From the sequence record ON871820: a DNA stretch of 64,000 nucleotides; one strand, 5' to 3'. Each line of letters starts with the position of its first letter. Positions within the stretch are counted from its first letter, which is position 1. Shown here piece after piece: positions 4 through 19,197 of this stretch. The notes below the pieces were generated by a model. It saw only the letters and a list, made by a program, of their open reading frames with translations, ran no database searches and was not told the origin of the DNA. Made by a program: the position numbers and the translations under genes. The stretch is from Escherichia phage vB_Eco-B1.1.

Positions 4-750
4 ATGAATTCAACTGTTAAAACTCCAGGTAAAACGGAAGCACACCACGTGCTTCCTAAATCAATATTTCCTGAATATTTAAAATCTACATGGAATTTAG
101 TTAATTTAAGTCATTTTAATCATTTTAAAGCACACTTCTTATTAGCAAAAGGTAAAAATGGAAAAATGCTAAATGCTTTAAATAGAATGATGTCAGGAAA
201 AACATATAAAAATTTATCTTTAGCCGAAGTTGATTTAATAGCTGCTGAATATAGTTTTATAAAACAAGATGTAAGTGACACAATATCAAAAAGGCTTCAA
301 CAGTATTATTCAAATCCGCAAAATAGAAATGCTGCTAGAGAAAGGGCATTAAAATATTTTTCAGTAGCAAAAAATAGGAAAGATAACAAAGAAAGATTAA
401 ATAATTTTAAAACAAAACAAAAAATTTCAATGGCTTCAAGGGAATGGTTTAATAACGAAGAAAATAAAATTAAACACCAAAAGGCTGTTCGTGCTGCTTT
501 ATCAAAACCTGAATATAAAATAGCTATATCAAATTCAGTAGCTGCTAGTTGGAAAAATCCGGAGATTAGAAAAGCTCATATAGCATCTAGACGAAAAGGC
601 TATCATTGGGATAATAAAGATAAATTGTATGAATTGTGGATATCATATAATCGTCCTAAACATGTGATGTTTAGGAAAATGTTAGTTAAGAATGGATATC
701 CAATAGAGGCTTCATTACAGGCTTTAGTTAAAGAATTTTCTTCATTGTGA
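4..750 (+). CDS. HNH-family homing endonuclease, possibly 5'-truncated by window edge
   Basis: N-terminal EAHHVLPKS...N..NLS...H motif resembles HNH; tandem NUMOD-like basic repeats; C-terminal LYELW..NRPK..F.K..V..GYP module shared with ORFs 3088 and 18547; frame open to position 1. Confidence 0.6.
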   Translation: MNSTVKTPGKTEAHHVLPKSIFPEYLKSTWNLVNLSHFNHFKAHFLLAKGKNGKMLNALNRMMSGKTYKNLSLAEVDLIAAEYSFIKQDVSDTISKRLQQYYSNPQNRNAARERALKYFSVAKNRKDNKERLNNFKTKQKISMASREWFNNEENKIKHQKAVRAALSKPEYKIAISNSVAASWKNPEIRKAHIASRRKGYHWDNKDKLYELWISYNRPKHVMFRKMLVKNGYPIEASLQALVKEFSSL

Positions 751-765
751 ACAATTGGATACAAA

Positions 766-2448
766 ATGAAATCATTTAAACTTAATAGAGTAAAATATAA
801 AAATATAATGTCAGTTGGTCAAAATGGAGTTGACATTCAATTAGATAAGGTTCAAAAAACTCTTATTACTGGACGAAATGGAGGTGGTAAGTCTACTATG
901 TTAGAAGCCATCACATTTGGGCTTTTTGGCAAGCCATTTCGCGATGTAAAGAAAGGTCAATTAATAAACAGCACAAATAAGAAAGAACTTTTAGTTGAAC
1001 TGTGGATGGAATATGATGAGAAAAAGTATTATATCAAAAGAGGACAAAAACCAAACGTTTTCGAAATCACCGTTAACGGTACACGTCTTAATGAATCTGC
1101 CAGCAGTAAAGATTTCCAAGCAGAATTTGAACAGCTTATCGGAATGTCATATGCCAGTTTCAAGCAGATTGTTGTCCTTGGTACAGCAGGGTATACCCCT
1201 TTCATGGGTTTGTCGACCCCTGCGCGAAGAAAGCTTGTGGAAGACCTGCTCGAGGTAGGAACATTAGCTGAAATGGATAAGCTTAATAAAGCACTAATAC
1301 GTGAATTAAATTCACAAAACCAAGTGCTTGATGTTAAAAAAGATAGTATTATCCAACAAATTAAAATATATAATGATAACGTTGAACGCCAGAAAAAATT
1401 AACTGGTGACAACCTTACTCGTCTGCAAAATATGTATGATGATTTGGCAAAAGAAGCTAGAACGCTAAAATCGGAAATAGAAGAAGCTAATGAAAGATTA
1501 GTTAATATTGTTTTAGATGAAGACCCGACTGATGCATTTAATAAAATCGGTCAAGAAGCAGTTTTAATTAAATCAAAAATTGACTCGTATAATAAAGTCA
1601 TTAATATGTATCACGAAGGTGGATTATGTCCAACCTGTTTGTCACAATTGAGTTCCGGTGATAAAGTTGTTTCTAAAATTAAAGATAAAGTTTCTGAATG
1701 TACGCATTCGTTTGAACAGCTTTCAACACACCGCGATAATTTAAAAGTTCTTGTCGATGAATACCGAGATAATATTAAAACACAACAGTCATTGGCAAAT
1801 GATATTCGCAATAAAAAGCAATCTCTGATCGCAGCAGTAGATAAAGCTAAAAAAGTTAAAGCGGCTATAGAAAAAGCATCTTCTGAGTTTATTGACCATG
1901 CTGATGAAATAGCACTGCTTCAAGAAGAACTTGATAAAATTGTTAAGACAAAAACTAATTTGGTAATGGAAAAATACCACCGAGGAATTTTGACTGATAT
2001 GCTCAAAGATTCTGGTATTAAAGGTGCTATTATTAAAAAGTACATTCCATTATTTAATAAGCAGATTAACCATTATCTTAAAATAATGGAAGCGGATTAT
2101 GTGTTTACATTAGATGAAGAATTTAATGAGACAATTAAATCCCGTGGTCGTGAAGATTTTAGTTATGCTTCATTTAGTGAAGGTGAAAAAGCACGAATTG
2201 ATATTGCTCTTTTATTTACTTGGCGTGATATTGCTTCTATTGTATCTGGTGTTAGTATTAGTACATTAATACTCGATGAAGTGTTTGATGGGTCATTTGA
2301 TGCCGAAGGTATTAAAGGTGTAGCTAATATTATAAATTCAATGAAAAACACTAATGTTTTTATAATTTCACATAAAGACCATGACCCACAAGAATATGGT
2401 CAGCATCTTCAAATGAAGAAAGTTGGTCGATTTACTGTAATGGTTTAA
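766..2448 (+). CDS. 46: gp46 recombination endonuclease subunit (SbcC/Rad50-like ATPase)
   Basis: 560 aa; Walker A GRNGGGKST; coiled-coil middle; synteny upstream of rpbA and 45. Confidence 0.9.
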   Translation: MKSFKLNRVKYKNIMSVGQNGVDIQLDKVQKTLITGRNGGGKSTMLEAITFGLFGKPFRDVKKGQLINSTNKKELLVELWMEYDEKKYYIKRGQKPNVFEITVNGTRLNESASSKDFQAEFEQLIGMSYASFKQIVVLGTAGYTPFMGLSTPARRKLVEDLLEVGTLAEMDKLNKALIRELNSQNQVLDVKKDSIIQQIKIYNDNVERQKKLTGDNLTRLQNMYDDLAKEARTLKSEIEEANERLVNIVLDEDPTDAFNKIGQEAVLIKSKIDSYNKVINMYHEGGLCPTCLSQLSSGDKVVSKIKDKVSECTHSFEQLSTHRDNLKVLVDEYRDNIKTQQSLANDIRNKKQSLIAAVDKAKKVKAAIEKASSEFIDHADEIALLQEELDKIVKTKTNLVMEKYHRGILTDMLKDSGIKGAIIKKYIPLFNKQINHYLKIMEADYVFTLDEEFNETIKSRGREDFSYASFSEGEKARIDIALLFTWRDIASIVSGVSISTLILDEVFDGSFDAEGIKGVANIINSMKNTNVFIISHKDHDPQEYGQHLQMKKVGRFTVMV

Positions 2449-2503
2449 TTTATAAGAGATTATGCTTTAATTTATTAGAGTATAATCTCTATGGAGGAAA
2501 AAC

Positions 2504-17247: not shown

Positions 17248-18279
17248 ATGTCATCAATACCTTGGATTGATAATGAGTTTGCGTATCGTGCATTAGCTCA
17301 TTTACCTAAATTCACACAAGTAAATAATAGTTCAACTTTTAAATTACGGTTTAGATGCCCTGTTTGTGGAGATTCAAAAACCGACCAGAATAAAGCTCGT
17401 GGATGGTATTATGGTGATAATAATAATGAAGGAAATATTCATTGTTATAACTGTAACTATCATGCACCAATCGGAATATATTTAAAGGAGTTTGAACCTG
17501 ATTTATATCGTGAGTATATCTTTGAAATAAGAAAAGAAAAAGGTAAAAGTCGTCCAGTAGAAAAACCTAAAGAACTTTCTAAACAACCTGAGAAGAAAAT
17601 AATTAAATCTCTTCCGTCATGTGTTAGATTAGATAAACTGACGGAAGACCATCCAATTATAAAATATGTAAAAGCTCGTTGTATTCCAAAGGATAAATGG
17701 AAATATCTTTGGTTTACAACTGAATGGCCTAAATTAGTTAATAGCATAGCACCAGGAACATATAAAAAGGAAATACCTGAGCCTCGTCTTGTTATTCCAA
17801 TTTATAATGCTAATGGAAAAGCTGAGTCTTTTCAAGGACGTGCATTAAAGAAAGATGCTCCTCAAAAATATATCACCATCAAAGCTTATCCTGAGGCAAC
17901 AAAAATCTATGGAGTCGAACGAGTTAAAGATGGTGATGTATATGTTCTAGAAGGACCTATAGATTCACTTTTTATTGAAAATGGTATAGCTATTACGGGT
18001 GGTCAATTAGACCTAGAAATTGTTCCATTTAAAGATAGACGTGTATGGGTTTTAGATAATGAACCTCGTCATCCTGACACTATTAAACGAATGACTAAAT
18101 TGGTTGATGCAGGAGAAAGGGTTATGTTTTGGGACAAATCTCCCTGGAAATCAAAAGATGTTAATGATATGATTAGAAAGGAAGGTGCAACCCCTGAACA
18201 AATTATGGAATATATGAAAAATAATATTGCACAGGGGTTGATGGCTAAAATGCGGTTATCTAAATATGCTAAGATTTAA
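17248..18279 (+). CDS. 61: gp61 DNA primase
   Basis: 343 aa; zinc ribbon CPVCGDS...CYNC; TOPRIM region. Confidence 0.95.
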   Translation: MSSIPWIDNEFAYRALAHLPKFTQVNNSSTFKLRFRCPVCGDSKTDQNKARGWYYGDNNNEGNIHCYNCNYHAPIGIYLKEFEPDLYREYIFEIRKEKGKSRPVEKPKELSKQPEKKIIKSLPSCVRLDKLTEDHPIIKYVKARCIPKDKWKYLWFTTEWPKLVNSIAPGTYKKEIPEPRLVIPIYNANGKAESFQGRALKKDAPQKYITIKAYPEATKIYGVERVKDGDVYVLEGPIDSLFIENGIAITGGQLDLEIVPFKDRRVWVLDNEPRHPDTIKRMTKLVDAGERVMFWDKSPWKSKDVNDMIRKEGATPEQIMEYMKNNIAQGLMAKMRLSKYAKI

Positions 18280-18476
18280 ATTAACCCAACCAAAGCAAAT
18301 GCTAAATCTACGAATGTATCGAGAGTAATTACTGGAATATTAACGCCATGAGCAATAGCAATTGGTGATAAAACAAAATTCCAGAGTAAAATTCCTATCA
18401 TAGCAGAAATAGTAAAAGCTATACGTTTTTTATTACCTTTGATGGCATTAACAAGTGCCATTAATTTTTGTACCAT
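18276..18476 (-). CDS. small membrane protein on opposite strand
   Basis: 66 aa, two hydrophobic segments; strong RBS AAGGAGGA 6 nt upstream; AT-rich late-promoter-like TATATAAA upstream on minus strand. Confidence 0.45.
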   Translation of the reverse strand: MVQKLMALVNAIKGNKKRIAFTISAMIGILLWNFVLSPIAIAHGVNIPVITLDTFVDLAFALVGLI

Positions 18477-18546
18477 ATGTCCTCCTTATTGCTTTATATA
18501 TTTATTGTATAATTAATCTACTAATCCATGAATTGAAAGGATATAT

Positions 18547-19197
18547 GTGAATTACCAAAAAATTTACTCGGCTTTAATTACAAAAGCTAAATGCCGGCAT
18601 CTTGGCGGATATAAAGAACGCCATCATATAATTCCTAGATGTATGGGAGGAACAGATGGCAAAAACAATCTTGTTGAGTTAACTGCGCGTGAGCATTTTA
18701 TAGCTCATAGATTATTAACTAAAATATATCCAGATGTGAGAGGATTGCATTATGCTGTAAATTTAATGCGATATAATAAAGGTGTTAAATTAACAAGTAG
18801 ATTAATAGAAACCCTTAAAATCCAAAACTCCGTTCTTTTCTCGGGTGAAAATAATCCTAGATATGGCAAGCCGTCATGGATTAAAGGCAAAAAGACCCCA
18901 GAAGAAACTAAAGCCAAAATGCGTCTAGCTCATAAAGGTAAAATTATATCCGATGAAGCCAAGGCTAATATGAGTAAAGCCCGAAAAGGAAGATTTAGCG
19001 GTAAAAATTCACCTCGATATGGTTTACCAAATCCTAGGCGAGGAGAAATATGGAATAGTTATGATGCGCTTTATGAATTATGGGTTTATAATAATAGACC
19101 TAAACGCACAAAATTTAATAAAATAGCTGTCAAGGCAGGTTATCCTAATATCTGCTATAGACATATGATAGAAAACTTCATAAGAAAGGAAAAATAA
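18547..19197 (+). CDS. HNH homing endonuclease
   Basis: ERHHIIPRCMGG...N.VELT..EH..H motif; NUMOD-like repeats; shared C-terminal module; GTG start after AAGGA. Confidence 0.7.
   Translation: MNYQKIYSALITKAKCRHLGGYKERHHIIPRCMGGTDGKNNLVELTAREHFIAHRLLTKIYPDVRGLHYAVNLMRYNKGVKLTSRLIETLKIQNSVLFSGENNPRYGKPSWIKGKKTPEETKAKMRLAHKGKIISDEAKANMSKARKGRFSGKNSPRYGLPNPRRGEIWNSYDALYELWVYNNRPKRTKFNKIAVKAGYPNICYRHMIENFIRKEK

Follow-up and report, generated by a model that had tools for sequence, protein, structure and literature searches.

The window analysed here (the whole stretch of 64,000 nucleotides) contains three free-standing endonuclease genes whose products end in similar segments. Two of them have an HNH nuclease, the third has a GIY-YIG nuclease. 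Are these C-termini a true protein domain, and has it been shuffled recently between catalytic families within this genome, as suggested in a preliminary description of the sequence?

The endonuclease genes

Judging from its sequence, the window belongs to a T4-like phage (Tequatrovirus): it is 97–98% identical to Tequatrovirus genomes. The three genes previously described are all present as open reading frames, and the homology of their C-termini has been confirmed. Their features are the following:

1-750, + strand: ORF1, free-standing homing endonuclease gene of the Mob type (HNH), flanked by genes 46.1 and 46
1-186, + strand: ORF1 HNH core (EAHHVLPKS...NLVNL...NHFKAH), motif read from the sequence, aligns with T4 Mob HNH cores
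187-588, + strand: ORF1 linker, basic and helical, with variant repeats resembling NUMOD3; homology with ORF2 amino acids 119-237
589-741, + strand: ORF1 C-terminal three-helix module (matches of 9e-27 and 1.3e-21 in two profile searches)
3088-3975, + strand: ORF2, free-standing homing endonuclease gene of the SegG type (GIY-YIG), flanked by rpbA and gene 45
3088-3432, + strand: ORF2 GIY-YIG nuclease domain (VYLISF...YYIGSK...E81...FN98)
3442-3798, + strand: ORF2 DNA-binding linker, with basic helices (amino acids 147-234) after a small beta element, homologous to ORF1
3799-3948, + strand: ORF2 C-terminal three-helix module (profile matches 9e-36 and 1.2e-20)
18547-19197, + strand: ORF3, free-standing Mob-type HNH homing endonuclease gene with a GTG start, flanked by gene 61 and gene 56
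18547-18801, + strand: ORF3 HNH core (ERHHIIPRCMGG...NLVEL...EHFIAH), PHROG HNH match 1.6e-12
18844-19026, + strand: ORF3 NUMOD3 repeats in two stretches (PF07460, 29.5 bits, cut-off 20.4)
19036-19185, + strand: ORF3 C-terminal three-helix module (profile matches 1e-26 and 1.4e-24)

When the loci are compared with T4, the three genes appear as insertions with sharp boundaries. ORF1 is missing from T4 at the corresponding locus, ORF3 occupies the place of T4 dam, and at the ORF2 locus 51 nt of T4 are replaced by 875 nt, with ATGA start/stop overlaps at both ends of the gene. Their occurrence is sporadic: among more than 750 related phage records, ORF1 is found in 70 (T2 included), ORF2 in 24 and ORF3 in 58. 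Intergenic cassettes with a patchy presence among close relatives and a recognisable N-terminal GIY-YIG or HNH nuclease domain are typical of seg and mob genes, and all three genes have these features. By sequence they classify as ordinary free-standing homing endonuclease genes of the T-even seg/mob type, whose products are predicted to be active both as endonucleases and in homing. The window also contains an I-TevI gene (59535-60272).

The 5' end of ORF1 is truncated by the edge of the window, about 35 codons lie further upstream. A start at base 4 had been proposed, which is wrong: the frame is open from base 1, and the counterpart in phage EC121, of 284 amino acids, has its CDS start 105 nt upstream. 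The homologue P0007 also has 284 amino acids and is 99% identical.

Both ORF1 and ORF3 have the HH...N...H motif and are homologous to characterised HNH homing endonucleases (T4 MobB-E). ORF1 matches the PHROG HNH family (6.5e-12) and, over its full length, T4 MobD (BLASTP 1.8e-17). ORF3 is also similar to MobD over its full length (2.8e-32), and its HNH core is 62% identical to that of MobE. The protein thus looks like a MobE-like HNH core joined to a MobD/SegA-like tail. The Pfam HNH search gives no match for ORF1, and for ORF3 it gives 14.7 bits (E 0.035) against a cut-off of 21.4.

The nuclease domain of ORF2 is 36% identical to T4 SegG over 116 amino acids. Its GIY and YIG motifs lie on neighbouring beta strands, and its fold is I-TevI-like, the features that define the GIY-YIG superfamily. 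The family invariably has E81 and N98, which on inspection of the sequences match I-TevI E75 and N90. An equivalent of I-TevI Arg27 was sought after the YIG motif, and no conserved Arg is found there in ORF2 or in SegG-type sequences. Pfam GIY-YIG models do not match ORF2, and hhalign with Seg and I-TevI gives a weak similarity (probability about 10%). It is therefore from its similarity to SegG that ORF2 is predicted to be active; SegG shows the same Arg-less pattern and is reported to be active (PMC2988022). The copy of ORF2 in EC121 is frameshifted, which is consistent with the usual decay of homing endonuclease genes.

A common C-terminal module

The last 50 or so amino acids of the three proteins are homologous, with BLASTP values between 2e-4 and 8e-13. 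ORF1 and ORF3 are similar over their whole length (8e-13), ORF1 and ORF2 over about 190 amino acids (2e-11), ORF2 and ORF3 over the last 39 amino acids (2e-4). These proteins are rich in Lys and Asn, and a purely compositional similarity, with no order of motifs, would have been the simplest objection. Smith-Waterman scores for the last 62 amino acids are 8–18 SD above those of 2000 composition-preserving shuffles, and none of the 2000 reaches the observed score, so the similarity is not compositional. The motif order is also fixed: W-x3-DEL-x2-LW-x5-P-x4-F-RK-IAV-x2-G-YP-D-x2-Y-x2-MV-x2-F. It is kept in 115 instances of the module, in whose core the aromatic and hydrophobic residues vary little or not at all (W 100%, L 92%, F 91%, G 91%, Y 92%), and it agrees with the consensus of about 45 amino acids given in the preliminary description.

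The region common to ORF1 and ORF2 goes beyond these 45 amino acids: it is the entire DNA-binding region of 170–190 amino acids. Their linkers (27% identity over 193 columns, E 2e-11) carry divergent K-x-K-I-S-x-S-x-K..W-x-N-P-E helical repeats. ORF2 may be described, from these comparisons, as a SegG-like nuclease joined to an ORF1/MobD-like DNA-binding region. NUMOD-like repeats had been proposed for the three proteins. In Pfam this holds for ORF3, which has NUMOD3 well above the cut-off; ORF2 reaches 10.4 bits, below the 20.4 required, and ORF1 gives no match to NUMOD3 (PF07460).

The module itself is not covered by any Pfam or NCBIfam family, nor does it match any PDB sequence. It is not detected as NUMOD3 or NUMOD4, and none of the 115 instances matches NUMOD1 (PF07453, the HTH of I-TevI and I-HmuI), even at E≤1. 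The module HMM has no match in 150 kb of phage 0305phi8-36, which include gp29 (I-Bth0305I), whose NUMOD2 repeats are a single example of this type. Direct hhalign comparison of the module with this one example sequence gives a probability of 0.7%.

In the six-frame translation of the window, the module profile only matches ORF1, ORF2 and ORF3. It is absent from the other endonuclease genes, ORF4 (11086-11727) and that of I-TevI. A Srd-like protein (23591-24337, '...KLKRGYPLNCSIFKLI') appears similar by eye, but it is rejected by both profiles and its BLASTP E value is 0.026.

Distribution among nucleases

An exhaustive HMMER search (E≤1e-3) of 1.84 billion representatives finds the module in 108 clusters at 50% identity. 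Its position is nearly always C-terminal, with one to three tandem copies per protein. The N-terminus is HNH in 38 carriers, GIY-YIG in 45 and neither in 25, most of which are short fragments. The presence of one module on both catalytic families, proposed for the three genes, is widespread. Pfam independently detects HNH, GIY-YIG, SegE_GIY-YIG and NUMOD3 domains in module carriers (NUMOD3 in 29 of the 108 representatives), and one carrier has an HNH_3/phrog_99-type nuclease. A word-indexed homologue search is far less sensitive: no matches are found with the 59-column module profile, and only six proteins with a longer profile of the DNA-binding region. Among T4 proteins, the module profile matches MobD (1.3e-19), SegA (2.5e-14) and, in part, SegF (5.9e-5). 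Since MobD is an HNH and SegA a GIY-YIG protein, T4 already displays sharing across families.

The nuclease type is random relative to the module tree: for 81 representative proteins it requires 26 Fitch steps, 26.4 with permuted labels, but the tree is based on 52 columns only, so part of this apparent randomness could reflect lack of resolution. The median identity between modules (36.7%) is the same across and within nuclease families, and some cross-family pairs are up to 64% identical. Only domain exchange explains the pattern of one DNA-binding module on two unrelated catalytic families. The module family appears to be old and widely dispersed among the pooled homing endonucleases of T4-like phages.

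Predicted fold and function

An AF2 model of the ORF3 module segment (pLDDT 89.5) has helices at residues 5-19, 25-34 and 43-53; in the full-length model of ORF2 they are found at 246-255, 261-270 and 276-290. The module is confidently predicted to be a compact three-helix bundle, similar to an HTH. The loop between helices 2 and 3 has eight residues (G-Y-P-D-x-x), more than a classical HTH turn, and Foldseek finds nothing significant for this model in the PDB.

The module probably binds DNA. The three proteins would be built as "beads on a string", with the nuclease at the N-terminus, then a basic linker, and a domain of about 50 amino acids at the C-terminus. On a long and asymmetric target site, the module would most likely hold the enzyme at the distal end, the linker, with its NUMOD3 or NUMOD3-like helices, would track along the DNA, and the nuclease would act at a distance, GIY-YIG cutting and HNH nicking. 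I-TevI and I-HmuI use their C-terminal HTH subdomains in this manner.

Another function is conceivable: protein interaction or regulation, such as oligomerisation, or the docking of the endonucleases to a T4 protein of replication, recombination or transcription. We consider it unlikely. The module sits where I-TevI and I-HmuI have their HTH (PMC3664794), it is basic (mean net charge +3.6), and it occurs in tandem, as other DNA-binding beads do. Its free divergence is expected from differing DNA specificities, not from a conserved partner.

Age of the shuffling

The preliminary description suggested that the shuffling was recent and took place within one genome. Neither part agrees with our results. 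The three copies in the window have 30–44% protein identity and 42–55% DNA identity. Third codon positions are 30–40% identical, which is near random, and no blastn similarity is found between the module-coding segments. The mixing of modules has been shown not to be recent. The low identity and the lack of DNA similarity correspond to ancient shuffling, across the phage gene pool.

A recent copy between HNH and GIY-YIG genes of this phage could be imagined, since the three modules lie within 19 kb, very short homologies are enough for recombination in T4-type phages, and Vibrio phages provide documented cases of homing endonucleases that have recently swapped domains (PMC10448857). We find it very improbable: besides the divergence of the copies, for each module there are relatives in other phages that are closer than those in this genome, and T4 has the module on both families. 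Distant T4-like phages have ORF2 homologues with 57–60% identity at this same rpbA/45 junction, so the ORF2 architecture is old, inherited or homed as a unit, and was not built in this genome. As for chance, convergence or a Lys/Asn-rich artefact in a short segment, its probability is practically negligible in view of the composition-corrected BLASTP values, the shuffles, the fixed order of core positions, the confident fold prediction and the 108 profile matches, at least 83 of them in endonucleases.

The best explanation, which we hold with good confidence, is that these are ordinary homing endonuclease genes in which an old, pooled, putatively DNA-anchoring module has recombined many times with either type of nuclease.

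Significance

The module is an uncurated addition to a known kind of DNA-binding bead. It comes as no surprise, but it is a concrete illustration of how T-even homing endonucleases combine shared DNA-binding beads with interchangeable nucleases, and of the presence of one such bead on both MobD and SegA in the reference phage T4. As a domain family the module is clean, comprises at least 108 clusters and is missing from Pfam and the PDB. A model of it would improve annotation, since many of the genes bear the label "hypothetical protein"; it could also help to predict what uncharacterised Mob proteins target. Natural pairs of HNH (nicking) and GIY-YIG (double-strand cutting) enzymes with the same DNA-binding region, for example ORF1 and ORF2, are templates for chimeric site-specific nucleases.

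It is quite unlikely, in our opinion, that this family-level domain, apparently specific for the most part to homing endonucleases of T4-like phages, is a "universal adaptor" tuned to glucosyl-hydroxymethylcytosine DNA or to conserved gene-boundary or promoter sequences. If it were, this could help explain the cassettes at gene junctions and the co-existence of many families in T-even phages.

Comparison with known systems

T4 MobD (NP_049710) is similar to ORF1 and ORF3 in its HNH core, basic repeats and C-terminal module, but the identity is only 30–34% and its locus is different (nrdC.11/mobD.1). PMC2988022 gives both its activity and its target as not determined. T4 SegA, an active site-specific endonuclease (PMC2988022), has NUMOD3 and the same module; its amino acids 131-214 match 126-211 of ORF3 (3.5e-8). 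Its nuclease is of the SegA-E type, while that of ORF2 is of the SegG type, and its module has 26–33% identity with the copies in the window. SegA cuts in uvsX. T4 SegG shows the opposite situation: its nuclease is homologous to that of ORF2, including the VY...YYIGSK...GK-Y motifs, while its C-terminal region is unrelated and lacks the module. SegG excludes T2 gene 32, and its locus (32/59) is also different.

In Vibrio phages, domains have been swapped among T5orf172 homing endonucleases, in some cases so recently that the nucleotide sequences still show it (Barth et al. 2023, PMC10448857), which is not the case for the module of ORF1-3. These enzymes also differ from ORF1-3 in nuclease family and in their DNA-binding domains, which are CapR zinc finger and RepA_N. 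The occasional tandem copies of the module resemble NUMOD2, described as an HTH motif that occurs in tandem (Sitbon and Pietrokovski 2003, as cited in PMC2677866 and PMC3239194). The structural paradigms are I-TevI and I-HmuI, in which the nuclease is followed by a NUMOD3 minor-groove helix and a C-terminal HTH; the domains of ORF1-3 come in the corresponding order. I-HmuI (HNH) and I-TevI (GIY-YIG) have NUMOD3 and HTH modules in common (PMC3664794), and the DNA-binding domains of T4 endonucleases of both families have been described as modular "beads on a string" (PMC2988022).

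Free-standing endonuclease genes

The window shares 97–98% identity with genomes of Tequatrovirus (T4-like phages), for example EC121, GRNsp7 and IME340. Its plus strand is the minus strand on the T4 map, and its gene order is 46, 45.2, rpbA, 45, 44, 62, regA, 43 ... 42 ... uvsX, 41 ... 61, 56, soc. The three endonuclease genes of the preliminary description are all present, and a T4 gene is missing at one of the insertion sites:

1–750 (+): ORF1, Mob-type HNH endonuclease, truncated by the window edge
3088–3975 (+): ORF2, SegG-type GIY-YIG endonuclease
18547–19197 (+): ORF3, Mob-type HNH endonuclease
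18488–19183 (T4 16799–17724): T4 dam methyltransferase gene missing between genes 61 and 56, ORF3 in its place

ORF1 does not start at base 4, as had been proposed: the open frame already includes base 1. In EC121 the orthologous gene begins 105 nt further upstream and encodes 284 aa, the same length as P0007, a homologous protein with 99% identity to ORF1.

ORF1 and ORF3 have HH...N...H cores and match PHROG HNH families (6.5e-12 and 1.6e-12, respectively). T4 MobD is matched by ORF1 (1.8e-17) and, over its full length, by ORF3 (2.8e-32), whose core is 62% identical to MobE. No nuclease match is found for ORF2 in Pfam; residues 1–115 share 36% identity with T4 SegG (9e-15), and the putative catalytic residues E81 (Glu) and N98 (Asn) do not vary across the family. 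No counterpart of I-TevI R27 is evident in the ORF2 sequence family, nor in SegG, which is reported to be active (PMC2988022).

These genes are mobile cassettes. The segments 775–3085 and 3961–5000 align with T4 at 97–98%, with ORF1 lying upstream of 775. In the rpbA-45 spacer, 51 nt of T4 are replaced by ORF2 (875 nt), with an ATGA overlap at each end. The relatives ELT1 and IME537 have both dam and the endonuclease gene found here in its place (ORF3). Among more than 750 phage records matching the flanking genes, ORF1 is carried by 70 (including T2), ORF2 by 24 and ORF3 by 58. Homologues of ORF2 (57–60% identity) are also found at the rpbA/45 junction of divergent T4-like metagenomic contigs. 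The EC121 orthologue of ORF2 (5588–6476 of the phage sequence) is a decaying copy: its frame is shifted near codon 20, and only the part from an internal start onwards is annotated.

Homology of the C-terminal regions

With composition correction, BLASTP relates ORF1 to ORF3 over their full length (8e-13), ORF1 to ORF2 over about 190 aa (2e-11, 27% identity), and ORF2 to ORF3 in the last 39 aa only (2e-4). Sharing extends beyond the tail in one pair: ORF1 and ORF2 are homologous over the entire region following the nuclease. Local alignments of the last 62 residues score 8–18 SD above 2000 shuffles, none of which equals the observed scores, and a tail profile run over all six frames of the window matches ORF1, ORF2 and ORF3 only. 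The order of the motif is constant in 115 instances and agrees with the consensus first proposed:

W(84%)-x3-D/E-E-L(92%)-x2-L/I-W(100%)-x5-P(72%)-x4-F(91%)-R/K-K/R-I/L-A-V/I-x2-G(91%)-Y/F-P(83%)-D-x2-Y(92%)-x2-M/I/L-V/I-x2-F(82%)

With this fixed order, and with scores beyond those of shuffled sequences, the similarity is therefore not compositional. The NUMOD-like repeats first reported are confirmed by Pfam in ORF3 (NUMOD3, 29.5 bits), but ORF2 only reaches 10.4 bits and ORF1 has no NUMOD3 match. In place of NUMOD3, ORF1, ORF2 and T4 MobD have a related K-x-K-I-S-x-S-x-K..W-x-N-P-E repeat.

No entry in Pfam (including NUMOD1, NUMOD3 and NUMOD4), NCBIfam or PDB sequences covers the module, and comparison with the NUMOD2-type HTH repeats of I-Bth0305I, the one example used, gave no match. 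PHROG 655 ("homing endonuclease") covers each of the three proteins. A confident AlphaFold model built from the 115-sequence alignment (pLDDT 89.5) has three helices, at residues 5–19, 25–34 and 43–53. Given this predicted fold, a mean net charge of +3.6 and the C-terminal position, the module is probably an HTH-like DNA-binding domain, the analogy being the HTH at the C-terminus of I-TevI and of I-HmuI (PMC3664794).

Distribution and exchange of the module

The T4 reference phage already has the module on an HNH enzyme and on an experimentally active GIY-YIG enzyme: the module profile matches MobD (1.3e-19), SegA (2.5e-14) and, partially, SegF (5.9e-5). By tblastn it is found in 328 phage records, chiefly T4-like phages infecting enterobacteria or Aeromonas. 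When 1.84 billion representative proteins were searched exhaustively with the profile, 108 clusters matched (E<=1e-3). Typed with local profiles from T4 Mob and Seg domains, their N-termini are HNH in 38 cases, GIY-YIG (Seg or SegG type) in 45 and neither in 25, which are short fragments for the most part. Pfam, run separately on the same set, finds HNH, HNH_3/4/5, GIY-YIG, SegE_GIY-YIG and NUMOD3. One protein, P0061, has the module on a phrog_99/HNH_3-type nuclease; others, both GIY-YIG and HNH, have two or three copies in tandem (P0009, P0019 and P0066, among others).

Sharing across nuclease types, as initially proposed, is well supported. ORF2 combines a SegG-like head with an ORF1/MobD-like DNA-binding region, and ORF3 a MobE-like head with a MobD/SegA-like tail. 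Median module identity is 36.7%, equal within and between nuclease classes; the highest cross-class value is 64%, and the ORF2 module shares 62.5% identity with the one on P0027, an HNH protein. In a neighbour-joining tree of 81 modules, whose resolution is limited by its 52 columns, nuclease type requires 26 changes, compared with 26.4 with permuted labels.

Recent shuffling within one genome, the explanation given at first, is not supported. The three copies in the window show 30–44% protein and 42–55% DNA identity, their third codon positions are close to random, and no blastn match links the segments that encode the module. The sequence data point instead to repeated ancient exchange in the common endonuclease pool of T4-like phages.

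Other features of the window

Several neighbouring or related features were found:

11086–11727: fourth free-standing endonuclease gene, SegA-E-type GIY-YIG, weak NUMOD3 match
18276–18476 (-): 66-aa hydrophobic antisense ORF between gene 61 and ORF3
23591–24337: T4 Srd orthologue (PHROG 1400, 6e-108)
58843–60731: td gene split by a group I intron encoding I-TevI (59535–60272; TIGR01453, 3e-56)

The fourth endonuclease has a CxxC...H..C zinc-finger-like end in place of the three-helix module, and the region 11088–12655 shows no relationship to the beta-gt/segA region of T4. The DNA of the antisense ORF is conserved in T4 (17725–17934), unannotated in NC_000866; some relatives label it "phage protein". 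The N-terminal 100 aa or so of the Srd orthologue also match HNH/endonuclease VII PHROG families. By eye its C-terminus looks like the module, but the similarity is not significant. I-TevI differs from the T4 protein in one residue.

Gene 56 (19199–19717) is only 76% identical to that of T4, with flanks at 95–97%, and segF is absent from the adjoining stretch (19718–19800) between gene 56 and soc when compared with T4. Gene 56 is the target of T4 SegF (PMC2988022); this locus is a divergent gene 56 allele without segF, with ORF3 directly upstream instead. The two endonuclease genes, ORF3 and segF, may be competitors on either side of gene 56.

The gene 32 ORF (ssDNA-binding protein, 55930–57108) has 392 aa, compared with 301 in T4. 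Past "...SSSADDTD" the frame continues across an early-promoter-like repeat and into the following ORF, apparently without the usual acidic C-terminus and its stop codon; the cause could be gene fusion, a deletion or a frameshift introduced by sequencing. A repeat of about 19 nt, GTGGTACTATACAACTATC, is found at approximately 9517, 36646, 40257 and 56824, with GTTTACA 17 nt upstream at two sites. The element resembles an early promoter of T4; inside mechanically called ORFs it produces a spurious common peptide, "GTIQLS".

Relation to known systems

ORF1, ORF2 and ORF3 are ordinary T-even free-standing homing endonuclease genes. A 2010 review attributes "a distinct C-terminal region" to the mob genes (PMC2988022); we have found no explicit statement of the MobD/SegA tail homology in the literature covered. 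Domain swapping and repeated DNA-binding modules have recently been described in T5orf172 endonucleases (PMC10448857). The uncurated three-helix module is one more bead of a known modular system.
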